Shown here: piece after piece, positions 20,605 to 63,046 of the stretch
Numbering within the stretch: position 1 is the stretch's first letter
Layout: the number at the start of each line of letters is the position of its first letter
NCBI GenBank assembly: GCA_964470695.1
Contig: CAYYDR010000001.1
Span: forward strand, 337,997-401,996
Source of the DNA: an uncultured Gammaproteobacteria bacterium
GTDB taxonomy: Bacteria; Patescibacteriota; Patescibacteriia; Patescibacteriales; UBA12465
DNA: 64,000 nt
Direction of reading: 5' to 3'
Made by a program: the position numbers and the translations under genes
The notes under the pieces: model-generated
Database searches by the model: none
What the model saw: the letters and a program-made list of their open reading frames with translations, nothing else
Told to the model about the DNA's origin: nothing

Positions 20605-20726
20605 AGTTTTATTATATCATAAAAGCCAAAATTAGGCTTAAATTCGGTGGAAAAAGGGGTATTTACAAGTTCATATTTATATGGCAAACTATATTTCATA
20701 AAGAAACAGATTTTTAGAGTCTGTTC

Positions 20727-21407: not shown

Positions 21408-21436
21408 AAAGCCCCGTTCTAGCAGCGGGGTTTTTT
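21408..21436 (+). terminator. rho-independent terminator
   Basis: CCCCG/CGGGG stem plus flanking A/U pairs, then TTTTTTATTGC. Near-identical tail to the terminator at 22665. Confidence 0.7.
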
Positions 21437-21580
21437 ATTGCCCTAGCCCTTGTATTTTTATTTTTTTGGTATAGAATGAAATTATTGAATTTTATTGGTT
21501 TTTAGCCCCTATTAAAGTAGTCCTTTGAAAATATAATTAACCCATATAAAACATTTCAGAACTAATTAGGAGAGTACAGA

Positions 21581-22664: not shown

Positions 22665-22694
22665 GCCCCGTCTGCTTTATGGCGGGGTTTTTTA
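22665..22694 (+). terminator. rho-independent terminator
   Basis: CCCCG/CGGGG stem then TTTTTTATTGC. Preceded by a second hairpin, CATACGG..CCGTATG. Confidence 0.65.
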
Positions 22695-22773
22695 TTGCTT
22701 AATTTTTGCCTTTTAGATTATAATCTATAATATAATAGACTGGCCGCGTTAATATTTATCGGTCAGCCTTAAC

Positions 22774-23694: not shown

Positions 23695-23817
23695 AGCCTA
23701 TTTTGGAATAAATTTGTGTGTGTAATATAGTAGCTATAATGGCTATTTTTTTATTAAAAAAGTGGTTTTTTTCTTTAAAATATGTTAAAATATATCCATA
23801 ATTAAATAAATAATCAT

Positions 23818-24180
23818 ATGAAATTTATTATTCGTTTGTTAATAAATGCTTTATTTTTGTTGGTCGCGCCCTTTATTATTAGCGGTGTAGTTATCTCTGG
23901 ATTTTGGACGGCGGTTATAACCGCTTTATTTTTGGGTATTGTTAATGCAATTATCCGACCGCTTTTGATAATTCTGACTTTACCGATTAATATTTTAACT
24001 TTAGGGCTGTTTACTTTAGTAATTAATGGCCTGCTCGTCTTACTGGTCTCTAGTGTGGTCAAAGGTTTCTATGTTGACGGTTTATGGAGTGCCATTGGCC
24101 TGTCTCTCTTGCTCTGGATAGTATCTTGGCTTAGTAATGATTTTATCGGCGGGGAACGATCTAAAGTAAATCGTTTTTAG
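23818..24180 (+). CDS. small 4-TM membrane protein, phage-holin-4-like (DUF360/YvlD family)
   Basis: GFWTA..TALFLGIVNAIIRPLLIILTLPINILTLGLFTLVINGL matches my memory of the family signature. Confidence 0.7.
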   Translation: MKFIIRLLINALFLLVAPFIISGVVISGFWTAVITALFLGIVNAIIRPLLIILTLPINILTLGLFTLVINGLLVLLVSSVVKGFYVDGLWSAIGLSLLLWIVSWLSNDFIGGERSKVNRF

Positions 24181-30083: not shown

Positions 30084-30110
30084 AAGCCACTTGTTAACAA
30101 GTGGCTTTTT
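30084..30110 (+). terminator. rho-independent terminator
   Basis: AAGCCACTTG-TTAA-CAAGTGGCTT perfect stem plus T-run. Confidence 0.8.
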
Positions 30111-35359: not shown

Positions 35360-36670
35360 TTATAGAATAATTCCTAATTCTTCAGTGAGCACTCTTTTTA
35401 CCTCAGCAACTGCATTAGGCGAATTAAGTAGCTGGCGACCCATTACTAGTTTAGTGGCGCCATTTTTTTTCGCTTTAGCCGGAGTATCAACTCTTTTTTG
35501 GTCATTCTTTTCTGCTCCTTCAGAACGAACTCCCGGAACGACGAATTCTTTGCCCGGAAAAGCCTTTTTTAACATTTTTACTTCTTCAGCAGAACAAACA
35601 AAGCCATCCGCTCCAGCATCTACTGCAATTTTTGCTAATTTCATGACCTGTCTTCTTGGCAGGCGGCTGTAGATTTCTTGGCAACTTTCTTTGTCTATGG
35701 ATGTTAACACCGTTACAGCCAGAACTTTAGTGTTTGTTCCTGTTAGCATTGAACTAGCCGCCCTTATCATTTCTGCCCCGCCGGAAGCGTGAACTGTAAC
35801 TGCCCAGGGATTATATCGGCGTAGTCTGCGACAGACATTACTTACCGTGTTGGGGATGTCATGTGATTTTAAATCAGCCATGACGCGGCCGTAGATAGAA
35901 AGATTTGGCAGTAATTGTTCCATGCCTCTTTCAAATAAGGCATCGTTAACTTTTAAAATACAGCCGGTTGTTCTTAGTTGGTCTATGATTGGCAGCATTT
36001 CATCCCAGTCTTTATTGTCTAAGGCAACAATAATAGGATTTTTTTCTTCCATATCTGGATTGCAGCTCTGCATCAAGCCAAGCTCAATTAACTGGCGTCT
36101 TACATCATGAAGAGTAAGACCAGGCCAAACATTCATTGGCGTATTGTGAATCATTAGATTTTTTTCCCAGCCCTGTTGTCTATCCACCAGGACAACTAAG
36201 GCTTGAGTGTTGAGTTTGAGACGTTTACATTCCTGATGAGGCGCTATTTTGCTAGCTCCGTCTGTAATAACATCATCAATAATGCAAATACTTTCCCCTT
36301 CTGAACATTTACCGATTATTTTTGCATCGGTGGCGCGGCCTTCTTTTGCTTGTTCGCGTATTGTTAGATAGGGGATGTTTGTTTCAACTGATAGAAGGCC
36401 GGCGAAGCAAGACACTGAATCTGGTATTTCCACAAAACGATCCGGTTGCAATCGTTTAATGGGAATAGCAAAGAGTTCAGATAAAAACAAGATAGCTTCC
36501 GGGTTATTTCTGGCGTCTCTTAGATTAATATAAACGTCAGTCTGTCCGCCGCTTTTTAAAGGTAACGATCTGTCATTGCTGAATTTTATCAATCCCAGCT
36601 TGAACAGTTTCTCTACTACTTCTCTGTGCTCTTCTGGGAAGAGCCAAGGTGTTGATAGAACAGTTTTCAT
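35360..36670 (-). CDS. fused orotate phosphoribosyltransferase / OMP decarboxylase (UMP-synthase-like)
   Basis: N-terminal half: LKSGGQTDVYINLRD and ICIIDDVITDGASK (PRTase). C-terminal half: IIVALD, ILKVND, ADLKSHDIPNTV (OMPdecase). Confidence 0.8.
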   Translation of the reverse strand: MKTVLSTPWLFPEEHREVVEKLFKLGLIKFSNDRSLPLKSGGQTDVYINLRDARNNPEAILFLSELFAIPIKRLQPDRFVEIPDSVSCFAGLLSVETNIPYLTIREQAKEGRATDAKIIGKCSEGESICIIDDVITDGASKIAPHQECKRLKLNTQALVVLVDRQQGWEKNLMIHNTPMNVWPGLTLHDVRRQLIELGLMQSCNPDMEEKNPIIVALDNKDWDEMLPIIDQLRTTGCILKVNDALFERGMEQLLPNLSIYGRVMADLKSHDIPNTVSNVCRRLRRYNPWAVTVHASGGAEMIRAASSMLTGTNTKVLAVTVLTSIDKESCQEIYSRLPRRQVMKLAKIAVDAGADGFVCSAEEVKMLKKAFPGKEFVVPGVRSEGAEKNDQKRVDTPAKAKKNGATKLVMGRQLLNSPNAVAEVKRVLTEELGIIL

Positions 36671-36788: not shown

Positions 36789-36839
36789 TTATTTTTGTTT
36801 CCTCTTTTTTATCTTCAAAATCTGATATAATATAAATAT

Positions 36840-37697
36840 ATGACTATTTTAATCTTGGGCGGCCGCGGAAATCTCGGGACGCAATTAACTAAAATATTAT
36901 CAACCGACTACGAAACCGTTTCCTGGGACAGGGAAGAGCTAGATGTTTTGGATTTTCCTTTATTAGCCGAGAAGGTTAGAGAGTTAAGGCCGGGCTTAAT
37001 AATCAATACCGTCGCCTATAATGCCGTAGACCGTTGCGAAGACAAAGCTGAATATGTTTTAGCTACGAAATTGAATAGTGATTTACCGGGCGCTTTAGCC
37101 GATCTAGCCCTAGAAATAAAGGCGGTTTTAATCCATTACTCTTCAGACTATGTTTTTAGTGGGACTGAAGATAAACAGATATTTGCAGAAAGTGATACGC
37201 CTAATCCTATTAATAAGTATGGTGAAAGCAAGTATCGCGGCGAGCAGGAAATTATTAAAAGAGAGGCGCGCGGCCTACAATATTATCTGATTAGAACTTC
37301 AAAGCTTTTTGGCCCTCTTGGCGCAAGCGCGCAGGCTAAGCCCAGTTTTTTTGACATAATGCTTAATTTAGCCCAGAATAATAAAGAATTGACCGTAGTT
37401 AATGAAGAACTCAGCTGCTTTACTTATACGGTTGATTTAGCTGAGGCTACTAAGCGTCTCTGGGAATTAGAAGTTCCTTTTGGTTTATATCATTTGGTTA
37501 ATGAGGGGCCAGTAACCTGGTACGGAGCGGTTTTAGAACTATTTCGTCTGAGCAAACTAAAAATAAATGTCCGGCCTCTGCGCAGCGAAGATTTATTAAG
37601 GGCCGCCCGGCGGCCGAAATTTTCCGCCCTCCAGAATACTAAAGTAAAAAAGTTACGGCGCTGGGAATTAGCGCTTAAAGAATATTTAAATAATTAG
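36840..37697 (+). CDS. rfbD: dTDP-4-dehydrorhamnose reductase
   Basis: ILILGGRGNLG, INTVAYNAVDRCE, YSSDYVFSG, YGESKYRGE. Confidence 0.88.
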   Translation: MTILILGGRGNLGTQLTKILSTDYETVSWDREELDVLDFPLLAEKVRELRPGLIINTVAYNAVDRCEDKAEYVLATKLNSDLPGALADLALEIKAVLIHYSSDYVFSGTEDKQIFAESDTPNPINKYGESKYRGEQEIIKREARGLQYYLIRTSKLFGPLGASAQAKPSFFDIMLNLAQNNKELTVVNEELSCFTYTVDLAEATKRLWELEVPFGLYHLVNEGPVTWYGAVLELFRLSKLKINVRPLRSEDLLRAARRPKFSALQNTKVKKLRRWELALKEYLNN

Positions 37698-47965: not shown

Positions 47966-49075
47966 ATGTTTAAATTATTAAAAACTACCAAGCAGGGAAT
48001 ACGCCAGGGCCGTTTACAAACGGCCCATGGTTTTTTACGGACGCCTTTTTATATGCCCGACGCCACGCGCGGTTTTGTTAAATTAACCGATAATGAAGCG
48101 GTCAAAAGAACTGGGACAGAAGCCATGGTGGTTAACACCTTTCATCTTTATTTGCAGCCGGGACTGGAGATAATAAAAAAAGCCGGCGGTATTCATAAAT
48201 TTATGAATTGGTCCGGCCCCTTATTATCAGATTCCGGCGGTTTTCAGGTTTTTTCTTTAATCCATAAAAATAAACAGTTGGGTAAGATTACTGACGATAA
48301 AGTAATTTTTAAATCCCCTTTGGATGGCTCAACTCATGAATTGACGCCAGAAAAATCTATCCAAATTCAATTCGCTCTCGGCGTTGATATGATGGTTTGT
48401 CTTGATGATTGTCCGCCTAACGAATTCTCCCGTCCGGATTTGGAAAAAGCTGTTGCGAGAACTATCGCCTGGGCCAAGAGATGTAAGATAGAATATGATA
48501 AGCAAATTAAAAAAAGACGTCTAGTTGGCGCTAAACGTCCGCTGCTATTTTCCGTTATCCAAGGTGGCGCGGAAATTGATTTGCGGGAACATTGCGCTAG
48601 AGAGCTCGCTAAAATTGGTTTTGATGGCTATGGGTTCGGGGCGCGACCGGTTGATAAAGAGGGAAATTTTTTAGGCGATGTTTTAAAAAAGACGGCTGAT
48701 TTTATTCCGCGCGATGCTTTGCGTTTTGCGCTTGGCATTGGTACGCCAGAGGATATTGTCCGCTGCGCTAAAATGGGCTGGGATATGTTTGACTGCGTTA
48801 TTCCGACCAGAGAGGGAAGGCACGGAAAATTGTTTTCTTTGGGTTCGGGTTCATTAGGCTCAGGGTTTAAATATAAAACTTTTAATATTAATAACGCTAA
48901 ATTTGCCAAGGACTTCACGGCAATTAATAAATCTAGCCATTTAGTTGAGTTAAAAAATAATTCTCGCGCTTATCTTCATCATCTGTTTCGTCTTAATGAA
49001 CCACTCGGTCATAAATTAGCTAGTTTGAATAATTTAGAATTTTATCAGAGTATAATTCGCGCTCTTTATAAATAA
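47966..49075 (+). CDS. tgt: tRNA-guanine transglycosylase-like protein lacking zinc ligands
   Basis: LSDSGGFQVFSL, GIGTPEDI, FDCVIPTR, SRAYLHHL. The CxCxxC...H zinc site reads S.L..L...N. Confidence 0.8.
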   Translation: MFKLLKTTKQGIRQGRLQTAHGFLRTPFYMPDATRGFVKLTDNEAVKRTGTEAMVVNTFHLYLQPGLEIIKKAGGIHKFMNWSGPLLSDSGGFQVFSLIHKNKQLGKITDDKVIFKSPLDGSTHELTPEKSIQIQFALGVDMMVCLDDCPPNEFSRPDLEKAVARTIAWAKRCKIEYDKQIKKRRLVGAKRPLLFSVIQGGAEIDLREHCARELAKIGFDGYGFGARPVDKEGNFLGDVLKKTADFIPRDALRFALGIGTPEDIVRCAKMGWDMFDCVIPTREGRHGKLFSLGSGSLGSGFKYKTFNINNAKFAKDFTAINKSSHLVELKNNSRAYLHHLFRLNEPLGHKLASLNNLEFYQSIIRALYK

Positions 49076-49091
49076 TCTCGGCCAATAAAAA

Positions 49092-49114
49092 AGACCAAGC
49101 TTGGGGCTTGGTCT
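49092..49114. terminator. terminator hairpin (T-run on the minus strand)
   Basis: AGACCAAGC / GCTTGGTCT stem. The A-run upstream on + gives a U-run for the minus-strand gene. Confidence 0.6.
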
Positions 49115-49191
49115 CCTTGGGGCACTTAGGGGGTGATATGAGGTTTAAATTTTTTTGGAGAGGACTAAATTTTGATGATTAGGGCTCTACT

Positions 49192-49695
49192 TTAAAGAGA
49201 AATATCCAGTTTTCCATCAGTAGAGAAGAGTATTTCAATCATTCCTATGATGGGGATGCCTTCATCAACAATAGTAATTTTTATTAATTGGCCTTCTTTG
49301 GCCTCATTGTAGCCGAGACCAAGTAAGAATGGTCGTCCGCCTATTACTAGTGACTTATCCTCTAGGCCGTATAGAAAATTGTGGGTGTTAGGGATAATCC
49401 ATTGTTCCAACGGAAATGTAGTGCCATCTGCTAATAAGGCAACTTTTTTTCCGTCCTTGATGTCAGAAGAATCGGGCGAACCGCAGATCGGACTATAGGA
49501 ATCAGCTGTTAAATCCAGATATTTCATTGTTTCCAGGTGGCGTTTTCCGGTGCCACAGATTACTTTAGAAATTTCAGCTGAAACTTTAGTCGCCGCCATT
49601 TGTTCTATTTGCATCATACCCTTAACCGTTAGGCCTGGGTTAGGTATATTGGGGTGTTTTTCCCCGTGGGTGATCACATAAATCACTTTTTCCAT
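49192..49695 (-). CDS. histidine-phosphatase-superfamily-like mini-protein (RHG replaced by THG)
   Basis: VITHGEK..PGLTVKGMMQIEQMA..CGTGKRHLETM follows the RHGE / LSxxGxxQA / SxxxRAxxT spacing. 167 aa; the second catalytic His is not evident. Confidence 0.5.
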   Translation of the reverse strand: MEKVIYVITHGEKHPNIPNPGLTVKGMMQIEQMAATKVSAEISKVICGTGKRHLETMKYLDLTADSYSPICGSPDSSDIKDGKKVALLADGTTFPLEQWIIPNTHNFLYGLEDKSLVIGGRPFLLGLGYNEAKEGQLIKITIVDEGIPIIGMIEILFSTDGKLDISL

Positions 49696-49709
49696 TAGAT
49701 GTTCCTTTG

Positions 49710-49724
49710 TTTAATGAACGATTG
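49710..49724 (-). promoter_or_regulatory. conserved 5'-leader motif, copy 1 (sense CAATCGTTCATTAAA)
   Basis: 15/15 identical to 57589-57603. Lies 1 nt upstream of the AAAGGA Shine-Dalgarno. Confidence 0.45.
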
Positions 49725-49768
49725 TCGGTTAATTATCAACTAAACCATTATACCACAATATATATTAT

Positions 49769-51199
49769 ATGTCAAGAGATAAATATTTGATAATGCGTGA
49801 CAGGACCACCCGGCTTAACCCGGTTTATTTGAATGGAGTTAGCGAAAATTCTGCTTTGAGCAAGAAAATTTATGGTCGTAATGTCCGCCAGGTTTTTGCC
49901 TTATTAGAGGAGGGGCGGAATTTGTTTTTTTTCTTTAAAAAAGATTGGGATGAAACAGCGGAGTATATTGCTAAGCGATTTTTGAAAGATCAGTCTTATT
50001 ACCCTCGTATTGCTAGTCATATTAAGACGGCCGAGGAAAGGATGGAAAAATTTATTAAGGCAGCCAAGGTAATAAAATTTTCTGAACTACCTTCAGCGGA
50101 GTTGATAAGCTGGACTAGTCGTTTTTGCCGCGAATGGGTTAATCTTGATGCCGCTAATACTTTGAGCTGGTATGTTGCTGGCGATCGTTTTCTATATTTA
50201 GCTAAAGAAAAGCTCGGCTTAAGCGATGAAGAATTTGACCTGGTCTCTTTGCCGACTCAGCTAACTAGAGCGAGCCAGATGGATATTGAATTAGATGAAC
50301 TGGCAATTAAAGTAAAATCCGGTCGCTCTAAAATTAAATCAGCCGCCCAACTTTTAACTAATAAATATGGCTGGCTGCCCTTTGGTTATGACGGCCCTGA
50401 TTATTGGGATGGGGATTATTTTTTAAAGCAAATTACTGAGAGAATAAAAAACTGCCAAAAAATTTCTCGCGCCCTCGCGGAACAGAAGAAAAATAAAGAT
50501 ATTATAAGCCGTAAGCGCCGAATGATAATGAGGAAGCTAAGTTCAGAAAATAAGCGACTGGTTGAGATTGCCCATCACTTAGCTATTTGGACTGATGATA
50601 GAAAATATTATCACTTTAGATTGCACTATCATTACGCACGGCTGATGCAAGAAATAGCCCAACGTTTCTCTTTGGACTATTGGCATTTGAAATTGTTGTT
50701 TGATTATGAAATGCCTTTATTAATTAAGGATTTTTCTAAAGCTAAAAAAATTATCTCGCAGCGTTTAGCTAAAACTACAATCGCTTCTTTTAAATCGGGT
50801 CAGATTAAAATATTGTCTTCGTCTCAGACCAGTAAAATAGTTAAGTATATTGCTCAGCAGCAAACCGGCAAGATTATTAAGGGGACGGTCGTTAGCCGGG
50901 GTAGCCAAGAAAAATATCGCGGTTCAGTTAGGGTAGTTCTTCAGGCTCGTGATAGTCATAAAGTTAAACCCGGTGAAATACTGGTCGCCACCATGACCAC
51001 TCCTGATTATATTATTGGCATGCAAAAAGCCATTGCTTTCGTAACTGATGAAGGTGGACTAACCTGTCATGCTGCAATTGTCGCCCGAGAAATGAAGAAG
51101 CCTTGTATTGTTGCCTCTCGCTTTGCTACTAAAATGTTAAAAGATGGCGACAGAGTAGAAATTGATATAAAACAGGGAACGGTTAAATTCGTGAAATAA
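49769..51199 (+). CDS. PEP-utilising-enzyme mobile (swivel phospho-His) domain protein with an uncharacterised helical N-terminal region
   Basis: C-terminal GEILVATMTTPDY......AFVTDEGGLTCHAAIVAREMKKPCIV. No ATP-grasp or PEP/pyruvate-binding motif recognised in the first ~370 aa. Confidence 0.7.
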   Translation: MSRDKYLIMRDRTTRLNPVYLNGVSENSALSKKIYGRNVRQVFALLEEGRNLFFFFKKDWDETAEYIAKRFLKDQSYYPRIASHIKTAEERMEKFIKAAKVIKFSELPSAELISWTSRFCREWVNLDAANTLSWYVAGDRFLYLAKEKLGLSDEEFDLVSLPTQLTRASQMDIELDELAIKVKSGRSKIKSAAQLLTNKYGWLPFGYDGPDYWDGDYFLKQITERIKNCQKISRALAEQKKNKDIISRKRRMIMRKLSSENKRLVEIAHHLAIWTDDRKYYHFRLHYHYARLMQEIAQRFSLDYWHLKLLFDYEMPLLIKDFSKAKKIISQRLAKTTIASFKSGQIKILSSSQTSKIVKYIAQQQTGKIIKGTVVSRGSQEKYRGSVRVVLQARDSHKVKPGEILVATMTTPDYIIGMQKAIAFVTDEGGLTCHAAIVAREMKKPCIVASRFATKMLKDGDRVEIDIKQGTVKFVK

Positions 51200-51203
51200 A
51201 AAA

Positions 51204-51227
51204 GAGGTCGCGTGTGTATACGACCTC
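51204..51227. terminator. hairpin between convergent genes
   Basis: GAGGTCG / CGACCTC stem with a 10-nt loop. Confidence 0.5.
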
Positions 51228-51277
51228 CTCTGTTGCTGTGATGCAGTAACAACCGCCTACCAAGCGATTCGTAGAAA

Positions 51278-51733
51278 TTAAAATTGATTGAAGACCGGTT
51301 CCCCAGAGAAAAGAACTACATAGTCTCCAGCTGTTTTGCTTAGCGGCCAGTCATAGCCTTTAGCCGGATCAATGTTTACTTCCAGCAAAACACCATTGTA
51401 GGTTGTTGGAGAAACAAAATTCGGCTCAACAATTAAGAGGCTGTTGTCGTCTAAGCTACCTATTAATTCTTGGATGGCTCTGTAATTTAAATCTGCGCCA
51501 CCGCAGATTTCTGTTATTTGACCTGGCTGAATTTGGAGACCGAGCGCCTCAGCCGTTTCACTATAAGCTTTCCCCTTGCCGATGAAGATTGTCTCGGGTT
51601 TCTGGAGTTTACTCCACTCGTCAGAGATAAAAATTTCGTTGGCTTGATAAAGGCCATTTGGCGAGAGACCACGGTCGCTTAAACCATCATTTTCGGCTGG
51701 TTCGCCGATTGTAACAATAACTATTTTTTTCAT
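51278..51733 (-). CDS. histidine-phosphatase-like mini-protein lacking the nucleophile His (RHG replaced by TIG)
   Basis: VTIGEP...GLSPNGLYQANEI...GKGKAYSETAEAL has the same spacing as the 49192 gene. 151 aa. Confidence 0.45.
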   Translation of the reverse strand: MKKIVIVTIGEPAENDGLSDRGLSPNGLYQANEIFISDEWSKLQKPETIFIGKGKAYSETAEALGLQIQPGQITEICGGADLNYRAIQELIGSLDDNSLLIVEPNFVSPTTYNGVLLEVNIDPAKGYDWPLSKTAGDYVVLFSGEPVFNQF

Positions 51734-51755
51734 TCAGCACCTTCCTTTGGTTTGA

Positions 51756-51763
51756 AATGAACG
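51756..51763 (-). promoter_or_regulatory. conserved 5'-leader motif, degenerate copy (sense core CGTTCATT)
   Basis: 8-nt core shared with the other two copies. CAATC is present 8 nt further upstream, and AAAGGA lies 7 nt downstream. Confidence 0.35.
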
Positions 51764-51861
51764 TTAAAAATGATTGCTTTAATTGAAGTTATTTATGCCG
51801 TTACTTTATAATTAATTTTAATATTTGTCAAATAAGCAACACCTCCAAGACCTTTTTCAAC

Positions 51862-51890
51862 TTGGCAAAATTTAACTTTTCCTTTATAAT
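51862..51890 (+). promoter_or_regulatory. sigma70-type promoter candidate for pyk-eno
   Basis: TTGGCA, 17-nt spacer, TATAAT. Confidence 0.55.
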
Positions 51891-51958
51891 AAGGTTGGCC
51901 ATTTAGGCCGTTTATTTAAGGGGCGTCAATCAAGATGTCTTTATTTTATTAGTTTATT

Positions 51959-52987
51959 ATGAGTACTAAAATTATTGCCACCATTGGCCCAAAAACCGAG
52001 AGTCCTAAAAATCTTTTAGCTATTTTTAAGGCCGGAGTTGATATTGTCAGAGTTAATTTTTCCCATGCCACTTATGACCAGTATAAGGGTATTAAGAAAA
52101 CTATTGATGACTTCAATCGTCATTCCGACCGAAAGGTATCTTTAATGCTTGATCTTCAGGGTCCGCGCATTAGAGTCGGTATTATGCCAGAGGATGGGCT
52201 TAATCTAAAAGAGAAAGAGGTTTACCAATTCGCTTACTCTAAATTACCGTATAAAAATGGCGGTATCATTCCGATCAATAGTCCTGATCTTTATTTGGAT
52301 ATTAAAAAAGATGAGCCTTTATTTTTATGTAATGGGGCGATTGAGCTTTTAGTTAAAGATATAAAGAGAAAAGTTATTACCGCTCAAGTTGTGACTGGCG
52401 GCCTCTTGAGCTCTAAAAAAGGGATTAATGTTCCTTATACTCACATTAAAAAGGGCGGCTTAACCGCCAAAGATATCCAGGATGTTAAGTTTGGTTTAAA
52501 GGCGGGCATGGATTATGTGGCTCTGTCTTTTGTCCAGACGGAAGAGGATGTTATTCGTTTGCGCCGCTTGTTAGGAAAAAATAGTAAAGTTAAAATAATT
52601 TCTAAAATTGAGCGCGCCATTGCTTTAAAAAATATTGATAAAGTTATTAGCGCCTCTGATGTAATAATGGTTGCCCGCGGTGACCTGGGCATTGAAGTAC
52701 CGATTGAAGATTTGCCAATTGTCCAGAAAAATTTAGTTAGGCACGCCCATTGGCATGATAAGCCGGCTATTATTGCTACCCAGGTTATGACCTCTATGAT
52801 TAAGAATCCTCATCCGACCAGAGCGGAAATTTCTGATATTGCTAATGCCGTTTTTGATGGAGCGGATATGGTTATGTTATCTGATGAGACAGCGGTCGGC
52901 GATTACCCAGTTGAAGCTATTAAAACTTTACGCAAGGTTTTAGATAGATCAGAAAAATATATTTATAAGTCCAACGTCATTAACTAG
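51959..52987 (+). CDS. pyk: pyruvate kinase, short form (no C-terminal regulatory domain)
   Basis: KIIATIGP, VRVNFSHA, MVARGDLGIE, SDETA. 342 aa. Confidence 0.88.
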   Translation: MSTKIIATIGPKTESPKNLLAIFKAGVDIVRVNFSHATYDQYKGIKKTIDDFNRHSDRKVSLMLDLQGPRIRVGIMPEDGLNLKEKEVYQFAYSKLPYKNGGIIPINSPDLYLDIKKDEPLFLCNGAIELLVKDIKRKVITAQVVTGGLLSSKKGINVPYTHIKKGGLTAKDIQDVKFGLKAGMDYVALSFVQTEEDVIRLRRLLGKNSKVKIISKIERAIALKNIDKVISASDVIMVARGDLGIEVPIEDLPIVQKNLVRHAHWHDKPAIIATQVMTSMIKNPHPTRAEISDIANAVFDGADMVMLSDETAVGDYPVEAIKTLRKVLDRSEKYIYKSNVIN

Positions 52988-53013
52988 TAATAAAATAATT
53001 AGCAATTAAAATT

Positions 53014-54300
53014 ATGAAAATAAAAGATATTACCGCTTTAGAAATATTGGATTCGCGTGGCAACCCGACTGTTTCGGTTACGGTTACTTTAAATAATGGC
53101 GCGATTGGTACGGCCATGGTTCCTAGCGGCGCCTCCACTGGTAGCTATGAAGCGGTAGAACTTCGCGATAACGATACTAAACGTTACAACGGCTTAGGAG
53201 TCTTGACGGCTATTAAAAATATTAAAGACAAAATAAATCCCGCTTTAATTGGTTTAAATCCAGAAGATCAGGAGGATATTGACGATAGAATGATTAAGTT
53301 AGACGGAACGGAAAATAAAGCTAAGTTAGGCGCTAACGCTATTTTAGCTGTGTCTTTAGCGGTTGCTAAAGCGGCGGCAGCTGGTTTAAAAATGCCGTTA
53401 TATGAGTATTTAGCCAAATTCAATCCAGACTTTAACAAGGAATATATCATGCCGGTTCCGATGATGAATGTTTTAAATGGCGGCAAGCATGCTAATTGGG
53501 CAACTGATATTCAAGAATATATGATACTGCCTATCGGTGCTAAAACTATTGCTGAAGCGGTCAGAACTTGCGCGGAAATTTATCAAACCTTGAAAAAGGT
53601 TTTGAAGAAGCGCGGCTATAATATTACAATTGGCGATGAGGGCGGTTTTGCGCCGGCCGTGGCGAGCAATGAAGAGGCTTTTGTTTTATTATCAGAAGCT
53701 GTATCAGAGGCGGGCTATACTTTAGGCAAAGATATAATTTTTGGTATTGATGCGGCTGCTACGGAATTTTTCAAGGACGGCTCTTATCATCTTCATAAAG
53801 AGAATAAGGTTTTAAGCGGCGCCGAATTAATTAACTTTTATCGCGATTTACAATCTAAGCATCCGATTTATTCTTTTGAAGATATTTTTGCGGAGGATGA
53901 TTGGAATAATTTTCGTGAATTTACGGCTCTTAATGATAATAAGGTCCAAGTGGTCGGCGATGACTTATATGTGACTAATGTTGAACGGTTAGAAAAGGGA
54001 ATTGAGACTAAGGCTAGCAACTCCATTTTAATTAAACTCAATCAAATTGGCACCCTGACCGAAACTATTAAGACTATTCTGCTCGCTAAAAGAAATGGCT
54101 TAACCTCAGTTATTTCCCATCGTAGTGGTGAAACTGAAGATACTTTTATTGCTGATTTAGTTGTTGCTATGGGCACGGGACAGATTAAGACCGGCGCGCC
54201 CGCTCGCTCGGAAAGAACCGCTAAATATAATCGCTTGATAGCTATTGAAGCGGAGCTAGGCGATAAGTCTAGTTACGCTGGTTTTCCCTTTATTAAATAA
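53014..54300 (+). CDS. eno: enolase
   Basis: ILDSRGNPT, SGASTG..EA.ELRD, VGDDL, IKLNQIGT.TET, SHRSGETED. Confidence 0.95.
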   Translation: MKIKDITALEILDSRGNPTVSVTVTLNNGAIGTAMVPSGASTGSYEAVELRDNDTKRYNGLGVLTAIKNIKDKINPALIGLNPEDQEDIDDRMIKLDGTENKAKLGANAILAVSLAVAKAAAAGLKMPLYEYLAKFNPDFNKEYIMPVPMMNVLNGGKHANWATDIQEYMILPIGAKTIAEAVRTCAEIYQTLKKVLKKRGYNITIGDEGGFAPAVASNEEAFVLLSEAVSEAGYTLGKDIIFGIDAAATEFFKDGSYHLHKENKVLSGAELINFYRDLQSKHPIYSFEDIFAEDDWNNFREFTALNDNKVQVVGDDLYVTNVERLEKGIETKASNSILIKLNQIGTLTETIKTILLAKRNGLTSVISHRSGETEDTFIADLVVAMGTGQIKTGAPARSERTAKYNRLIAIEAELGDKSSYAGFPFIK

Positions 54301-54340
54301 TCTTGGCCAGTCTCTGGCTTATAGATAACAGATAGTTGAT

Positions 54341-55450
54341 ATGATGCAGCTTGTATTTTTTGCCAGCTCTCTCATCGCCCTATTAGGCGGCCATGCTTTA
54401 TTTTGGTTTATTTTTATTAAGTTCTTTCATATTACCGCTAGCTCTGATCAGACAGTCGCCGGTATTATTATTGGTATTTTATTTGTAGGGTTTATTCTAT
54501 CTTCATATTTAATACATAAATGGGATAATTTTTTTACTAGGGTTTATTACATTTTCTCCGGCTTATGGATCGGCTTGTTTATGAACCTTTGTTTAATGGC
54601 CTTCCTCATAATATTAATTAAGCTGGCTGGTCCGCATTGGGGTTTTTATTTAGAGGAAAATTATCTGCGCTTGATATTTTTTGGCGGGTCATTGCTTATA
54701 TCAATTGTTGGTATATATAATGCGATAGTGCCTAAAGTGACCGAATATGAGGTCAAAATTAAAGATTTGCCTGAAGCCTGGGACAATAAAACCGTAGTCC
54801 AGATTTCTGATGTCCATCTCGGCCCGGTTTATCGTAAGGAATTTTTTTATAATTTAATTAAACAAGTTAATAAATTAAATCCGGAAGCGGTTTTTATCAC
54901 GGGCGATCTGTTTGATGGAATGGAGGCGGAATTTTCTTGGATGAATCATCCTTTTAATAACTTGCACGCCCCGCGCGGCACTTATTATAGCTATGGCAAT
55001 CATGACTTATATCTCGGCTATAGGCGGGTAAGGAGCCTATTAGAAGGTAATCCAGTTACGATTCTTAATAATAAAATGGAAGTGGTGGATGGCTTGCAGA
55101 TAATTGGTATTAATTATTCTTTTAATAATGACTTTGATTTAGAGGAAGCAATTTTAAAGCAGGTAGATTATGACTCCAGTAAACCTAGCATTCTTTTATT
55201 TCATGCGCCCCGTAATATAAATTTAGCCAGAAAAGTCGGTATTGATTTGCAGCTATCTGGGCATACTCATGACGGCCAAATGTTCCCTTATAATATTTTG
55301 ACTAAATGGGCACATGGCGGCTATGGCTATGGGTTTTTCCAGAAAGGTGATTTTAATTTGATTGTGTCAGCCGGAGTTGGTTCTTGGGGGCCGCCGATGC
55401 GGACCTCGGCGCGTAGCGAGATTGTTAAAATAATTCTTAAGAAAAAATAG
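54341..55450 (+). CDS. membrane-anchored calcineurin-like metallophosphoesterase
   Basis: 4-5 N-terminal TM helices, then ISDVHLG, TGDLFDG, GNHD, GHTHDGQ. Confidence 0.8.
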   Translation: MMQLVFFASSLIALLGGHALFWFIFIKFFHITASSDQTVAGIIIGILFVGFILSSYLIHKWDNFFTRVYYIFSGLWIGLFMNLCLMAFLIILIKLAGPHWGFYLEENYLRLIFFGGSLLISIVGIYNAIVPKVTEYEVKIKDLPEAWDNKTVVQISDVHLGPVYRKEFFYNLIKQVNKLNPEAVFITGDLFDGMEAEFSWMNHPFNNLHAPRGTYYSYGNHDLYLGYRRVRSLLEGNPVTILNNKMEVVDGLQIIGINYSFNNDFDLEEAILKQVDYDSSKPSILLFHAPRNINLARKVGIDLQLSGHTHDGQMFPYNILTKWAHGGYGYGFFQKGDFNLIVSAGVGSWGPPMRTSARSEIVKIILKKK

Positions 55451-55473
55451 TTTAAAAATATAAATATTATAAA

Positions 55474-56490
55474 ATGAATATTTCCGATTTAAGCAAAATT
55501 TTAGCCGCTGAACCAAAGTATCGTTACGCTCAGATTAATCAGGCCTTATGGCAAGATTATATTTCTGATTGGAGTGAAGCCTCAAGTTTGCCTAAAGCTT
55601 TGCGGGAAAAATTAGCCCAGTCATGCTCCTTGGAAATTAAGGCGGAATTGCTTAAGGCGGCTAATACTAAGAAAAGTGAAAAAGCGATTATCACAATGGC
55701 TGATGGGGAAGCGATTGAAACTGTTCTTATCCGTCAGAAAGATGGGCGCAATACCGTGTGTGTTTCCTCCCAGGCTGGCTGTCCCTTGGGCTGTGCTTTT
55801 TGCGCGACCGGCATGAATGGTTTCGGACGTAATTTACAGGCAGAAGAAATAGTGGAACAAGTAGTATTTTGGGCGCGTCAGCTAGTTAAAGAAGGGCGGG
55901 GCGAAAAAGTTGATAATATTGTTTTCATGGGCATGGGCGAACCTTTTCTTAATTATGAGGAGTTTATTAAAGCGGTAAAATTTTTGAATAATCCGGAAAC
56001 TTTAAATATTGGCGCCCGCCGCATGTCAGTTTCTACGGTCGGAATTACCGAGGGAATTAAGCGCTTAGCCGGAGAAAAGCTACAGATTAATTTAGCTATA
56101 TCTCTCCATGCCCCTGATGATGGCTTGCGAATGTCTTTAATTCCGGTGGCTAAAAAATATCCGCTGCGAGAAATTTTTAAAGCCGTGGATAATTATATTA
56201 CTAAGACTAGCCGCCGCGTGATGTTTGAATATTTAATGATTAAGGGAATTAATGACAGAGACCAGGATGCCGAAGAACTTTTAGAGCTCATGAAAAAACC
56301 CTTATATATGGTTAACCTTATTCCTTATAATCCAACCGGCAAATTCAAAGCTTCTAGCCGAGAGAGAATAGAGGCCTTTAAGGATATTTTAGAGAGGGGC
56401 GGCGTGCCAGCCACCATTCGCTTGAGCTTTGGATCAGATATTTCTGCCGCTTGCGGACAGTTAAGAGGCAAGAGAAAGCCCCGCGTTTAA
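55474..56490 (+). CDS. rlmN: 23S rRNA/tRNA (adenine-C2)-methyltransferase, radical SAM
   Basis: CVSSQAGCPLGCAFCATG, MGMGEP, C-terminal GSDISAACGQL. Confidence 0.92.
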   Translation: MNISDLSKILAAEPKYRYAQINQALWQDYISDWSEASSLPKALREKLAQSCSLEIKAELLKAANTKKSEKAIITMADGEAIETVLIRQKDGRNTVCVSSQAGCPLGCAFCATGMNGFGRNLQAEEIVEQVVFWARQLVKEGRGEKVDNIVFMGMGEPFLNYEEFIKAVKFLNNPETLNIGARRMSVSTVGITEGIKRLAGEKLQINLAISLHAPDDGLRMSLIPVAKKYPLREIFKAVDNYITKTSRRVMFEYLMIKGINDRDQDAEELLELMKKPLYMVNLIPYNPTGKFKASSRERIEAFKDILERGGVPATIRLSFGSDISAACGQLRGKRKPRV

Positions 56491-56541
56491 CGGCGCTCTT
56501 CGGTGGCCGCGCTTTTAAGCCAAGAAATTTATTTTAGAAAT

Positions 56542-56572
56542 AAAAAACCCGGCTGATTAAGTCGGGTTTTTT
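56542..56572. terminator. bidirectional rho-independent terminator
   Basis: AACCCGGC / GTCGGGTT stem, A-run upstream and T-run downstream, between convergent genes. Confidence 0.75.
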
Positions 56573-56589
56573 AGGTTCAAGATATGAAC

Positions 56590-57573
56590 CTAAGCGTTTA
56601 CAAAACTGCGGATTATTTCCGCGTTAATGCATTTAAGAACGTTATCCTTGCTCAGGTTTAGCTGGAAATAATAATTGAGTATATCATCAATGTCTATTTC
56701 CTTAGATCGGCCGGATAAATATTCTTTTCCTTTAATACTGTAATCCAGTATAACTAGCCATGGGAATTTTTTTATTCCTTCTTCTAGTATCCCAGTTATA
56801 TCAGTATATTCGCCAACCTCGCCCAGTTTTAGATAACCGACTGGGCGTTTAACTAGTTTAGCTTCGGCAAAGTGAGGAGAGTCATCTGATAGGCGGTTTA
56901 TAGCCTCCTCTGCCTCCTGGCGTGCCAATAAGCCTAAGTCAGCTAAACAGCTGATTTCCGCGTTATTTTTGCCATCAGCTATTTCCTGGACTATGTTCCA
57001 GAAAGTCTGGACATAATAGTTATTATCAAGGTGTTGATCCATGGTCCAGCTCACTTCAAGAGACAAAAAATATCTCTTAGCAGTTGGATTCTCAAAGATT
57101 GTTGCTTCCTTTTTTGAGCTCAATGATTTCTCCACCATCTGCCAGCTTATTGGTATTGGATACCAATTTTTGAGTGCCATCATTGCGCCTATTGCCGATA
57201 AATCATATCTTTTCATCAGGCAATACTTCCTAGCTTGTTCCCAGCCAGATTTGCTCCAGGAGTGGTTATCTAGACAGAAAACAACTGAGCCTTGATGTCT
57301 TTCCAAAAAAGTAAGCATGAATTCTTCCTCATCTTGATTTTTTGGGCCTATGCCAAGAATGTATATTTTTTCTTCATTTTGGCTATCCATGACCCCTGGC
57401 ATTGGCAAATCATAAACGATATTCTGGACGCTCTTCTCATTGTTGATGTTGCTTGGTATAGCGGGAATGAAGACGCTTATTTCTTCGCGGCCTATTTTAT
57501 TGAGGATAGCGGCGACAAGATATACAAGGCCTGGTTGGTAAGCATCAAAAAAAATCTTATGGATTGTTCTCAT
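56590..57573 (-). CDS. hypothetical protein, weakly DHH/DHHA1-like with degenerate motifs
   Basis: 327 aa, NrnA-like length. HKIFFDAYQPG..AAIL, VVFCLDNHSW, and LSGRSKEIDIDDI sit where the DHH motifs I and III and the DHHA1 S.RS motif would lie. GGGH is absent. Confidence 0.5.
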   Translation of the reverse strand: MRTIHKIFFDAYQPGLVYLVAAILNKIGREEISVFIPAIPSNINNEKSVQNIVYDLPMPGVMDSQNEEKIYILGIGPKNQDEEEFMLTFLERHQGSVVFCLDNHSWSKSGWEQARKYCLMKRYDLSAIGAMMALKNWYPIPISWQMVEKSLSSKKEATIFENPTAKRYFLSLEVSWTMDQHLDNNYYVQTFWNIVQEIADGKNNAEISCLADLGLLARQEAEEAINRLSDDSPHFAEAKLVKRPVGYLKLGEVGEYTDITGILEEGIKKFPWLVILDYSIKGKEYLSGRSKEIDIDDILNYYFQLNLSKDNVLKCINAEIIRSFVNA

Positions 57574-57588
57574 TGTCCCATCCTTTAT

Positions 57589-57603
57589 TTTAATGAACGA
57601 TTG
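57589..57603 (-). promoter_or_regulatory. conserved 5'-leader motif, copy 2 (sense CAATCGTTCATTAAA)
   Basis: Identical 15-mer to 49710-49724, 2 nt upstream of AAAGGA. Confidence 0.45.
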
Positions 57604-57625
57604 ACAGCATTAATTAGTAGTATTA

Positions 57626-57654
57626 ATAATAAAACGATTTGTTGATAATGTCAA
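57626..57654 (-). promoter_or_regulatory. sigma70-type promoter candidate
   Basis: Minus-strand TTGACA, 17-nt spacer, TATTAT. Confidence 0.5.
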
Positions 57655-57733
57655 TTACTATTGGCAAAAAATTGGTAAAATGGTGTATAATATAAATAAG
57701 ATATTTCTAGGTAAATATTTTAAAATTAAAAAT

Positions 57734-58174
57734 ATGAAAACTAAAAAGCGGAAAGCCCTGCCTGTTAAAGGTCGGTTTAAGCTTAAAACGACTGAGGCTC
57801 TGACCATAGTCGTGACCGTTTTATTTTTAGAGGCTATTATTCTTGGTGTTAATTTTTATTTGAGCCATACGTCTCAAAATAGCCATGGCCAATTGTCTTC
57901 TATTGCTGGCATAAAAATAGCTGAAGCCGCTCCGGCTAATATAGATGTTTATGCAATTGAAGAAATAACTAATTCTAGCTGCCGCCAGGATGTTGATTGC
58001 CAGGTTCCGGGAGAATACTTAATTCAATCTCGTTGCCAATTCGCCTCAAAATGTTTAGGTAGCTATTGTGCGATAGTCTGCCCAGGATTAAACAATTTGA
58101 CTTGGAATGAAGCCCTAAAAATTATTAATAATGGAGATCAGAGGCCAATAATGCTTAGGCCGCACCAGCTCTAA
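57734..58174 (+). CDS. small membrane-anchored Cys-rich extracytoplasmic protein
   Basis: Basic N-terminus plus one TM helix, and 6 Cys in about 45 aa. The ATG at 57680 lies inside a TATAAT box and is rejected. Confidence 0.5.
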   Translation: MKTKKRKALPVKGRFKLKTTEALTIVVTVLFLEAIILGVNFYLSHTSQNSHGQLSSIAGIKIAEAAPANIDVYAIEEITNSSCRQDVDCQVPGEYLIQSRCQFASKCLGSYCAIVCPGLNNLTWNEALKIINNGDQRPIMLRPHQL

Positions 58175-58177
58175 GTT

Positions 58178-58732
58178 ATGACTCACGAAACTAAAATAAA
58201 AGTTACTCTAGGCGATATTACTAAGATAAAAGCCCAGGCTATTGTTAATGCTGCTAACCGTGATTTATCAGGCGGCGGCGGTGTTGATGGTGCTATTCAT
58301 GCGGCGGCTGGGCCGGAATTAGCTGAAGAGTGCCGCGGCCTAGGCGGCTGCGAAACTGGCCACGCTAAGATTACCAAAGCTTATAAATTACCCGCTAAAT
58401 ATGTTATTCATACCGTCGGGCCAGTTTATGGCCACGAAGAAGGGCGGGAAGAATATCTATTATCCTCTTGCTATCGTAATAGTTTAATTTTGGCGAAGGA
58501 ACACGGAGCCAGGAGTATCTCTTTCCCTTGTATTTCTGCTGGTATTTTTAAGTTTCCTCATGATCAGGCCGCCGAAATAGCTGTTAGGACTGTTACGGAA
58601 TTTGTTGGAAAATACCCCGAGGCCTTTGATCAAATTATTTTTGTTACCTATGAAGAAGACGACTATCAGCTATATGAGGCGGCTATAGCCAAAGAGCGTT
58701 TCAATAAGCTAAAAGCTATTTGCGAAGCTTAG
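58178..58732 (+). CDS. macro-domain protein (O-acetyl-ADP-ribose deacetylase, YmdB-like)
   Basis: GDITKIKAQAIVNAAN..L.GGGGVDGAIH.AAG, HTVGP, SFP.ISAG.F. Confidence 0.88.
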   Translation: MTHETKIKVTLGDITKIKAQAIVNAANRDLSGGGGVDGAIHAAAGPELAEECRGLGGCETGHAKITKAYKLPAKYVIHTVGPVYGHEEGREEYLLSSCYRNSLILAKEHGARSISFPCISAGIFKFPHDQAAEIAVRTVTEFVGKYPEAFDQIIFVTYEEDDYQLYEAAIAKERFNKLKAICEA

Positions 58733-61464: not shown

Positions 61465-61540
61465 ACCGGTTAGAACGCTCAAATTATTTTGTTTTAAAGG
61501 TTTTTTGTGGTATAATAATAAAAATTAATTTAAAAAAAAT

Positions 61541-62110
61541 ATGAAAAAAACAATTTGGATCGTTATTATCGCGCTGGTTGTTTTAGTCGGCGCTTGGTTT
61601 TGGTCTTCTTACAATCGCCTAGTAACTGCTAGCGAGATGGTGGACGGGCAGTGGGCTCAAGTAGAGACCCAGTATCAAAGACGTTTTGATCTTATCCCTA
61701 ACTTAGTTTCATCAGTTAAAGGGGCGATGGGTCAGGAACAACAGGTTTTCGGCGATTTAGCTAAAGCGCGTGAGAATTACAGTGGCGCTAAGACTGTTAA
61801 TGATAAGGCGGCGGCAGCTAGCGAAGTAGAGGGAGCTCTAGGACGTTTGTTGGTAATAATGGAAAATTATCCACAGCTTAAATCTATTGATACTGTTAAT
61901 ACCCTGATGGCTCAACTGGAAGGAACGGAAAATCGTATTAGTGTTGAACGCGGACGGTTTAATGATGAAGTCAGAGGTTTTAATGTAATGATTAAGCGTT
62001 TCCCGATGAACATGATGTCTGGTGTCTTTAATTTTTCCGAGAAGACTTATTTCCAGATAGAAGAAGCGGCAGCTAAGGCTCCGACGGTCAACCTGGAGTT
62101 AAATAAATAA
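61541..62110 (+). CDS. lemA: LemA family protein
   Basis: N-terminal TM helix, YN.LV......QWAQVETQYQRR.DLIPNLV. Confidence 0.88.
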   Translation: MKKTIWIVIIALVVLVGAWFWSSYNRLVTASEMVDGQWAQVETQYQRRFDLIPNLVSSVKGAMGQEQQVFGDLAKARENYSGAKTVNDKAAAASEVEGALGRLLVIMENYPQLKSIDTVNTLMAQLEGTENRISVERGRFNDEVRGFNVMIKRFPMNMMSGVFNFSEKTYFQIEEAAAKAPTVNLELNK

Positions 62111-62125: not shown

Positions 62126-63046
62126 ATGCGGCGCTTATTAGTATTTTTTAGCCTAATTTTGTTTTTATTATTTGGATATTCTGTCCATGCCTATTCTAAC
62201 CCAGGAGAGCCGACTGGTTTTGTTAATGACTATGCGGCTCTTTTGTCATCCGAACAAAAATCAAACTTGGAGGCCAAGTTAAAAAAATTTAGCGAGGAGT
62301 CTAGTAATAAAATTTCTATAGTTACTATTAAAAGTTTAGATGGCGACTATATTGAAAATTATGCGGTTAAGCTTTTTAAGGATTGGGGCATAGGGAAAGC
62401 TAAGCAGGATAATGGTGTTTTATTGCTAGTGGCGCTAGAAGATAGAAAAATGCGGATAGAGACTGGCTACGGTTTAGAAGGGGCTTTGCCAGACGCAACG
62501 GCTAGCGAAATCATTACTAAAACTTTACGACCGGCTTTTCAAGCTGGAGACTATTATCAGGGCATTGATAGGGCAACAGATAAGATAATTGACGCAACAA
62601 GAGGAGAATATAAGGCCGACATGTCTCTTCCGTCAAATATCACTAATATCTTCAAATTTAATTTAGAGTCGCTTTTTTGGATAGGCCTATTTATTTTTTA
62701 TGCTTTAGGTTCTCTCTGGCGGCGCTTAGCGAAGAGTAAGGCTTGGTGGGAAGGAGGAATAATTGGCCTGGTTATAGGTTTAATAATTGCTTTAATATTT
62801 TTTAGAGCCCTATTAACAATTATTATTCTGCCTTTAATTCTAGGGGGATTTGGTTTATTGCTAGATTTCTTAGTTTCTAATATATTACCTAAACCTCCCG
62901 TTCCTGGTAAGAGAAAAAATCATTTTTGGTTTTTGGGCGGACCGGGTGGTTTTGGCGGACATTCAGGGGGCGGTTTTGGCGGCGGAGGATTTGGCGGTTT
63001 TGGCGGCGGCTCATCGGGCGGCGGCGGATCTTCCGGCAGCTGGTAG
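62126..63046 (+). CDS. TPM-domain (YgcG-like) membrane protein with Gly-rich tail
   Basis: GFVNDYAALLS..Q...LE..L......S...I.IVT..SL; GVLLLVALEDRKMRIETGYGLEG.LPD; TM helices; GGFGGGGFGGFGGGSSGGGGSSGSW. Confidence 0.8.
   Translation: MRRLLVFFSLILFLLFGYSVHAYSNPGEPTGFVNDYAALLSSEQKSNLEAKLKKFSEESSNKISIVTIKSLDGDYIENYAVKLFKDWGIGKAKQDNGVLLLVALEDRKMRIETGYGLEGALPDATASEIITKTLRPAFQAGDYYQGIDRATDKIIDATRGEYKADMSLPSNITNIFKFNLESLFWIGLFIFYALGSLWRRLAKSKAWWEGGIIGLVIGLIIALIFFRALLTIIILPLILGGFGLLLDFLVSNILPKPPVPGKRKNHFWFLGGPGGFGGHSGGGFGGGGFGGFGGGSSGGGGSSGSW

Follow-up and report, generated by a model that had tools for sequence, protein, structure and literature searches.

A Conserved 5′ Leader Motif Predicted to Connect Two Lineage-Specific Gene Families of Falkowbacteria-like Patescibacteria

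Introduction

Short signals located between a bacterial promoter and the start codon are known from the regulons of small RNAs (sRNAs) and RNA-binding proteins, such as sRNA seed targets and the GGA sites of CsrA, from operators that repressors occupy at or just after the transcription start site, and from leaders that sequester the Shine–Dalgarno (SD) sequence, including RNA thermometers of the ROSE and fourU types. In bacteria of the Candidate Phyla Radiation, which are not grown alone, gene regulation is almost unknown and very few regulators are recognisable; a literature search returned no work on the promoters or leaders of Patescibacteria or Falkowbacteria. The present analysis concerns a 15-nt motif, CAATCGTTCATTAAA, found in the putative 5′ leaders of minus-strand genes within a 64,000-nucleotide stretch (the window) of contig CAYYDR010000001.1 (assembly GCA_964470695.1, positions 337,997–401,996), which originates from an uncultured bacterium of the GTDB lineage Patescibacteriota. 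The genes are designated here as orfA, orfB and orfC. Judging from sequence comparisons, the motif is a selectively maintained cis-regulatory element. It lies in the predicted transcribed 5′ leader of two gene families that evolve fast and are specific to a lineage of Falkowbacteria-like Patescibacteria.

The Motif and Its Specificity within the Window

On the minus strand, the 15-mer has exactly two copies in the window, one in the orfA leader and one in the orfC leader, and the leader of orfB carries the 8-nt core of the motif as part of a shorter copy (Table 1). An earlier note, made from the letters of the window and its open reading frames (ORFs), had reported the two identical copies, together with the core, CAATC and AAAGGA of the orfB leader, and all of its coordinates were confirmed. 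Its statement that other minus-strand genes lack the motif was also correct, as the motif was not found in the leaders of the pyrE/pyrF-like gene (35360–36670) and the gene for RNase HII (rnhB, 19975–20604). Read from 5′ to 3′, the 15-mer is followed by C, AAAGGA, 7 nt and ATG in orfA, and by AT, AAAGGA, 7 nt and ATG in orfC, while AAAGGA lies downstream of the core CGTTCATT in the orfB leader. The degenerate second half-copy of the orfB leader, to which CAATC belongs, sits within a 14-nt insertion that is missing from the orthologous leader of L085 (loci of related genomes are cited by handles of this type). The sequences compared below indicate that the core of the motif is CGTTCATT in the clade of the window and that its family-wide form is [TC][CA]GT[TC]C(A)TT[TA].AA.

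Taken by itself, an exact match of 15 out of 15 nucleotides somewhere in the window is ordinary, since the window contains 60 repeated 15-mers forming about 38 pairs, many of them of normal complexity. Position and conservation mark this particular 15-mer as non-random, whereas the raw repeat does not. Among 276 pairs of 60-nt leaders, taken from the window genes that have an upstream gap, the longest common word is typically 6–7 nt, and just two words of at least 13 nt were detected, namely the motif 15-mer and a low-complexity A/T 16-mer. A first-order Markov simulation gave 0.018 expected copies with at most one mismatch per window, compared with the three observed. A sequence-only model constructed from six close sites found the three orphan leaders in the 64 kb with E-values of 6 × 10−4 to 2 × 10−3, and its next match (E-value, 0.13) was located inside a gene. 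Pure chance, for which the raw 15-mer match alone would be an insufficient objection, is rejected on leader position, the model scan and conservation; the view that such a match is not expected by chance is upheld on these grounds, but not on that of the match itself.

The A/T 16-mer, TTAAATAAATAATCAT, is found on the plus strand at 18388–18405 and 23802–23819, upstream of the genes at 18444 and 23818. Because of its low complexity, it may be a product of chance.

It is very improbable that the motif belongs to a dispersed repeat or mobile element, or to a small upstream or antisense ORF. The reverse complement of the motif (A ATG AAC G) does resemble a gene start, mini-ORFs of the type MND followed by a stop codon can be read on the plus strand, and the orfC leader contains ATG CTG TCA ATC GTT CAT TAA. 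However, identity ends at 15 nt, the flanks diverge, and searches of the window and of 340 kb of related DNA returned no further significant copies except in the orphan-gene leaders that L085 and L086 carry, which speaks against the dispersed element that the earlier note had allowed for. The mini-ORFs, in turn, vary in frame and length, have no ribosome-binding sites and are missing from the distant leaders; only that of the orfC leader is ATG-initiated, and the frames differ in orfA and orfB.

Table 1. Features of the window related to the leader motif, and variants of the motif in related loci
Feature	Position or locus	Strand	Gene	Details
orfA	49192–49695	−	orfA	167 aa; predicted histidine-phosphatase fold, THG replacing RHG; very few homologues
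orfB	51278–51733	−	orfB	151 aa; divergent orfA paralogue without catalytic His
orfC	56590–57573	−	orfC	327 aa; uncharacterised family, unrelated to orfA/orfB
Leader motif, copy 1	49710–49724	−	orfA	CAATCGTTCATTAAA; core CGTTCATT at 49713–49720; model match 49706–49726, E-value 0.002
Leader motif, copy 2	57589–57603	−	orfC	CAATCGTTCATTAAA; core at 57592–57599; model match 57585–57607, E-value 6 × 10−4; orthologous sites in L085/L086
Leader motif, copy 3	51751–51763	−	orfB	CGTTCATTTCAAA; core CGTTCATT at 51756–51763; model match 51749–51770, E-value 0.001
CAATC	51772–51776	−	orfB	8 nt upstream of the core; in degenerate second half-copy GCAATCATTTTTAA
One-mismatch copy	73–87	−		CAAGCGTTCATTAAA; antisense in a plus-strand ORF open from the window start to 346; not in a leader
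Putative promoter, sigma-70-type	49747–49775	−	orfA	TTGACA-17-TATAAT, TG extension; 12/12 matches
Putative promoter, sigma-70-type	51803–51831	−	orfB	TTGACA-17-TAAAGT; 10/12 matches; conserved in L085
Putative promoter, sigma-70-type	57626–57654	−	orfC	TTGACA-17-TATTAT; 11/12 matches; conserved in L085/L086
Shine–Dalgarno	49703–49708	−	orfA	AAAGGA; 7 nt before ATG 49695
Shine–Dalgarno	51743–51748	−	orfB	AAAGGA(AGG); 9 nt before ATG 51733
Shine–Dalgarno	57581–57586	−	orfC	AAAGGA; 7 nt before ATG 57573
Motif variant	L099		orfC	GGTTCTTTTTTCAA
Motif variant	L100, L102		orfC	AGTCCTTT(T)AA
Motif variant	L005		orfC	TGTTCTTAAATAA
Motif variant	L007		orfC	AGTTCTTAAA
Motif variant	L006		orfC	AGTTCTCAAATAA
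Motif variant	L093		orfC	AGTTCTTTAATAA
Motif variant	L094		orfA-like	TCGTACTTAAATAA
Motif variant	L001		orfA-like	TCGTAATTAAATAA
Motif variant	L002		orfA-like	TCGTTATTTAAC
Motif variant	L095		orfA-like	AGTTATTTCAA

Conservation of the Motif in Related Genomes

Orthologues of orfC are present in L085 (10001–10981) and L086/L087, where they are 60% and 57% identical, respectively, and an orthologue of orfB that is 32% identical was found in L085 (15790–16230). Housekeeping proteins of the window and L085 are 85–90% identical, and the identity of third-codon positions amounts to 43–49%, which indicates that neutral sites are close to saturation. The core is, nevertheless, invariant in 6/6 leaders of the window genome, L085 and L086, and it is flanked by 14-nt indels, one in the gap between motif and SD in orfC and another in the gap between promoter and motif in orfB. 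Moreover, the 13-mer CGTTCATTTCAAA of the window orfB leader is identical in the orfC leaders of L085 and L086, that is, in front of non-homologous genes of different genomes. The 8-mer core occurs seven times in 97 kb of the three close genomes, and six of these occurrences fall within the six leaders; the motif was not found at another opposite-strand gene of L085/L086 (299 aa). The orphan proteins thus evolve far faster than the products of the neighbouring genes. The upstream intergenic regions of orfB and orfC, by contrast, are 83% identical to those of L085, which exceeds the 73–78% nucleotide identity of the flanking housekeeping genes and, by a wide margin, the identity of third-codon positions. 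Compared with the identities of the orphan proteins themselves, these values suggest that the expression signals are more constrained than the products.

Variants of the motif were also recognised in more distant relatives (Table 1). Unsupervised de novo expectation–maximisation on 18 leaders of both families yielded a top motif, TCGTTCTTTA / CGTTCTTTAAAAA, that was represented in each of them. In a leave-one-out test, the 18 leaders scored higher than 88 control leaders of the same genomes (Mann–Whitney p, ~10−6), and an edit-distance test that compared nine distant leaders of the families with 85 controls gave p-values of 9 × 10−5 to 3 × 10−3, all of which are optimistic because the leaders of related genomes are non-independent samples. 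The motif is therefore found upstream of the orthologues in related genomes, as the earlier note had anticipated for a functional signal, with the core kept in L085/L086 and the broader version in all 18 family leaders. In addition, an unrelated 116-aa hypothetical gene of L019 (16400–16814) is preceded by the same layout, TTGACA-17-TATCAT-7-CGTTCTTTTTAAA, and may extend the motif set to this more distant genome.

That the motif has no function, being either a chance match or the relic of a promoter–leader cassette that was duplicated or gene-converted long ago, appears quite improbable. Such a reading would agree with the commonness of repeated 15-mers in the window, with the paralogy of orfA and orfB, and with the cassette-like appearance of the orfA and orfC leaders, both of which have TAATTAA 4–6 nt upstream of the motif and a 26-nt distance from the −10 box. 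It fits poorly with the near saturation of neutral sites between genomes in which the core remains invariant. The proteins encoded by orfA and orfB are just 22% identical, and an unselected leader would have decayed over the same divergence. Furthermore, many genomes have the motif in front of genes of the orfC family, which is unrelated to orfA and orfB, and the motif is enriched relative to control leaders.

Promoters and Position of the Motif

In 13/13 tabulated leaders, 17 nt separate a perfect TTGACA from a −10 box of the form TAnnnT, and the TTGACA-17-TAnnnT promoters that had been assigned to orfA, orfB and orfC were confirmed (Table 1). With a near-consensus promoter located upstream, the motif is predicted to be transcribed into each of these mRNAs. 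In the tabulated leaders, the core starts 8–39 nt past the −10 box and ends 17–61 nt ahead of the start codon; thus, the spacing of 1–2 nt between motif and SD described in the earlier note applies to orfA and orfC of this genome, but not to the relatives. The motif begins 7–11 nt past the −10 box, at the predicted start site, in L001, L094, L095, L005, L007 and L019, and 17–39 nt past it in seven other leaders, including all six of the window's clade, where the distance is 25–39 nt. The sense-strand orientation is the same in 18/18 leaders, and inspection of these 18 leaders revealed no dyad and no inverted or direct-repeat half-site at consistent spacing.

Some of these features would suit a DNA operator, on which a transcription factor, probably a repressor, would occupy the duplex past the promoter and block initiation or early elongation. 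We consider this explanation less likely than not, but plausible and a close rival of the reading preferred below. The −10 box invariably precedes the motif and the SD follows it, the motif overlaps the predicted start site in the six loci listed above, all members have very strong promoters of a constitutive type that would need repression, and neither an RNA structure nor an RNA partner was found (see below). On the other hand, the site is asymmetric and lacks a dyad or repeated half-site, its invariant core is short, and its orientation never changes. The long distance from the −10 box in the window's clade and the tolerance of 14-nt indels between promoter and motif are likewise hard to reconcile with an operator. 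No regulator gene was seen linked to the motif genes in this 64-kb window of the 678-kb genome, and the divergent neighbour of orfC is predicted to be a membrane-anchored Cys-rich protein.

Several other candidates were considered and rejected. A TTGACA at 57601 overlaps the flank of the motif, which might place the motif in a divergent plus-strand promoter, but it occurs in the orfC region of this genome only and is absent in L085/L086 as well as in the orfA and orfB regions. An extracytoplasmic function (ECF)-type −35 element (TGAAC) can be read on the plus strand; by inspection, no fitting −10 box is located at 16–17 nt. For LexA, Fur and Zur-like boxes, and for mimics of the tRNA T-loop or anticodon loop, the half-site arrangement or the flanking stems do not fit, and complementarity to the 5′ region of 16S rRNA would be structurally implausible.

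Different arrangements were observed at other genes of the window. The genes at 36840 and 20604 (the latter on the minus strand) have a TATAAT 6–8 nt before the ATG and no SD (regions 36820–36842 and 20604–20625), which suggests leaderless mRNAs, and the gene at 61541 (region 61515–61543) has a TATAAT about 23 nt upstream, also without an SD. Unlike these genes, orfA, orfB and orfC have long leaders and a clear SD.

RNA Structure and Candidate Partners

The folds of the leaders, compared with those of shuffled sequences, have z-scores from −1.1 to +1.3 (mean, about −0.25) and, thus, no extra stability; the orfA leader is less structured than random. RNAalifold predicted 0 consensus pairs on 11 leaders. 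In Rfam searches, two tRNAs were the only matches in the whole window at the gathering threshold, and an E-value scan of 49000–58500 gave no match at the leaders. The RNA structure that the earlier note had proposed to look for by covariation therefore did not emerge, either as a covariation-type consensus or as an Rfam match. The complementarity of the motif to the translation-initiation region is above background but weak (mean percentile, 0.22 against other 11-mers of the same leaders and 0.30 against shuffled motifs), and the motif is the best-pairing 11-mer in 6/14 leaders.

A purely cis-acting element, in which UUC(A)UUU would pair with AAAGGAA or AAUGRA as an anti-SD or anti-AUG sequence and restrain translation through a weak hairpin, possibly in the manner of an RNA thermometer, is improbable. 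In minimum-free-energy folds, the partner of the motif is often the SD or the start codon, for example, UUCAUUA:UAAUGGA in orfA and GUUCAUUUC:GAAGUGAAU in L086; the motif is the top-pairing segment in the 6/14 leaders mentioned; and the variants GUCCUUU and GUUCUUU are still pyrimidine runs complementary to an SD. However, the folds are no stabler than those of shuffled leaders, the pairing register differs among orthologues, and consensus structure and Rfam thermometer matches are both lacking. In L093, the motif is present in a leader that lacks an SD, and pairing with the SD would leave the strict C–G at the 5′ end of the core unexplained.

A putative sRNA partner would be expected to contain AAUGAACG, extended to UUUAAUGAACGAUUG. 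In 97 kb of the close clade, the complement AATGAACG occurs once, at 76–83 inside an ORF, and is not present in L085/L086. On the plus strand, the surrounding one-mismatch copy at 73–87 reads TTTA ATG AAC GCT, in which the ATG at 77 is a possible start. A plus-strand RNA of this region would be complementary to the leaders of orfA and orfC along 11 contiguous nt. This copy is probably outside the system; the 14/15-complementary stretch could, alternatively, be part of a trans-acting RNA partner.

The motif is asymmetric and unstructured, keeps to one orientation and is freely spaced from promoter and SD alike, and its above-background complementarity to the translation-initiation region likewise favours action on RNA. 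On these grounds we tentatively lean towards the reading, at somewhat less than an even chance, that a shared factor recognises the motif as a linear site on the mRNA. In this case, one common trans-acting factor, either an sRNA through its seed or an RNA-binding protein, would bind the single-stranded site and tune the translation or stability of the whole gene set together, and the pyrimidine run UUC(A)UU may contribute weak pairing to the SD/AUG region. Several observations weigh against action on the mRNA, or against the strength of the signal, in addition to the optimistic p-values noted above. About half of the distant leaders have the motif 7–11 nt past the −10 box, which is the classical position of an operator, and the 97 kb of the close clade yielded no candidate partner. 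The transcription of the motif is predicted from the promoter consensus. The scan covered 9% of the 678-kb genome, and with 83% overall identity of the intergenic regions, the motif is no uniquely conserved island in the close clade.

The proposal of a small regulon made in the earlier note holds insofar as a signal near the ribosome-binding site is common to a small set of genes; both a DNA-binding repressor and an RNA regulator would fit the data. A bolder version, which we regard as doubtful, is that the motif is the recognition site of an undescribed post-transcriptional regulator (sRNA seed or RNA-binding protein) and marks the first such regulon of Patescibacteria, co-controlling rapidly evolving lineage-specific proteins. 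Within that version, the controlled proteins would perhaps be host-interaction or metabolic-switch factors wedged into a glycolytic gene cluster.

Gene Products

The products of orfA and orfB are distant paralogues, and their family has seven members among 5.8 billion proteins. Neither product matches Pfam (including His_Phos) or NCBIfam. An AlphaFold model of this protein type has a pLDDT of 84.5, and a Foldseek search against the PDB revealed similarity to CobC, PGM TTHB049, SixA and PGAM5 (matched entries 6e4b, 1v37, 4hbz and 3o0t; E-values, ~4 × 10−6; TM-scores, ~0.5–0.6). A histidine-phosphatase fold of both products is supported by these results. Throughout the family, an invariant Thr occupies the position of the Arg in the RHG motif, and the catalytic His is not conserved, being missing in orfB and P0009, which fits the designation "degenerate".

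The family of orfC comprises 78 clusters at 50% identity, and a metagenome scan for its relatives returned six loci. No Pfam, NCBIfam or PDB match was obtained for orfC, even with a 54-sequence profile; Pfam matches were likewise absent from the 53 family members, and the profile search of the PDB returned no DHH chain. The structure model of orfC (pLDDT, 39) is unusable. The earlier note had taken all three products for catalytically degenerate phosphoesterase folds; this assignment stands for orfA and orfB, which are histidine-phosphatase-like, whereas the DHH-like assignment of orfC found no support among family or structure matches. PADLOC gave no match for the three proteins. In PHROGs, two marginal matches of unknown function (E-values, ~0.08–0.09) were obtained, on distant orfC relatives only.

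Genomic Setting

The relatives of the neighbouring metallophosphoesterase come from metagenome-assembled genomes labelled Candidatus Falkowbacteria or Patescibacteria, and the best of them is 69% identical. The source contig has a length of 677,688 bp. The plus-strand order TGT, pyruvate kinase, enolase, metallophosphoesterase and RlmN-like protein is tight and is conserved in 15 related loci. The three motif genes are opposite-strand insertions in this array, and each forms a predicted monocistronic unit opposite to the housekeeping operons. In the window, L085 and L008, genes of the orfA/orfB type separate TGT from pyruvate kinase, and those of the orfC type follow RlmN or the metallophosphoesterase in the window, L085, L086, L005–L007, L099, L100 and L102. 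In a distant genome, the orfA-like gene adjoins a gene for a ParE-family toxin (L095, 2857–3111; L096, 1477–1731), unlike in the glycolytic cluster.

Between orfA and orfB lies a plus-strand gene (49769–51199) for a 476-aa protein, in which only a C-terminal phosphoenolpyruvate (PEP)-utilizers mobile domain, similar to that of PEP synthase, was recognised (residues ~350–475). In relatives, this gene is missing, and TGT is followed by one orphan and then pyruvate kinase. The divergent neighbour of orfC, for which no family match was obtained, encodes a protein with a basic N-terminus, one transmembrane helix and a Cys-rich domain. Its listed start at 57680 (57680–57740, plus strand) overlaps a conserved TATAAT (57686–57691), so that the ATG at 57734 is more likely to be the real start.

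Elsewhere in the window, the G+C content drops to 26–30% at 6000–12000, compared with about 39–42% in the remainder; this part belongs to a long plus-strand operon and includes a glycosyltransferase region. A perfect 24-nt palindrome, AAGCCACTTGTTAACAAGTGGCTT, was found at 30084–30107, a 12-nt tandem repeat within a gene at 18597–18625, and a repeat with a 24-nt period (CCGCCGCCAAAACCG) at 62969–63009. The 17-mer GCAATAAAAAACCCCGC is present at two terminator-like sites (21425–21441 and 22682–22698).

Comparison with Known Regulatory Systems

The significance of the motif lies in the persistence of a short signal beyond the saturation of neutral sites and beyond the divergence of the encoded proteins to 32–60% identity, which offers a testable handle on the co-regulation of lineage-specific genes. 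The motif also ties two uncharacterised protein families functionally together, and both of them adjoin genes for pyruvate kinase, enolase and a PEP-utilising enzyme, which frames hypotheses on their role. The extent of this claim is one small regulon.

As regards the products, orfA and orfB resemble the histidine phosphatase superfamily (SixA/CobC/PGAM) in predicted fold, but differ from it in the absence of a Pfam His_Phos match, in the replacement of RHG by THG and, in orfB-type proteins, in the lack of the catalytic His.

To our knowledge, the motif CGUUCAUU matches no described recognition sequence. It shares with SD-sequestering leaders and RNA thermometers a pyrimidine-rich stretch upstream of the SD, partial complementarity and weak, mismatched pairing; in contrast to those systems, the motif leaders have no stable or conserved hairpin, no covariation and no Rfam match, and one member is without an SD. 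Like repressor operators located at or after the start site, the motif follows the −10 box of strong sigma-70-type promoters and precedes the SD in a small gene set, but it is asymmetric, has one orientation and varies in promoter distance from 8 to 39 nt. With the regulons of sRNAs and RNA-binding proteins, for which we know of no demonstrated Hfq/CsrA-type factor in this lineage, it has in common that a short, conserved motif of single-stranded type recurs in several unrelated mRNA leaders, on the sense strand only, with variable spacing to the SD and without a conserved fold; it departs from them in leaders where it is found at the very 5′ end, far from the SD. Matching no described family, the motif is a lineage-specific cis-regulatory leader motif that behaves like the target of a small post-transcriptional or repressor regulon.

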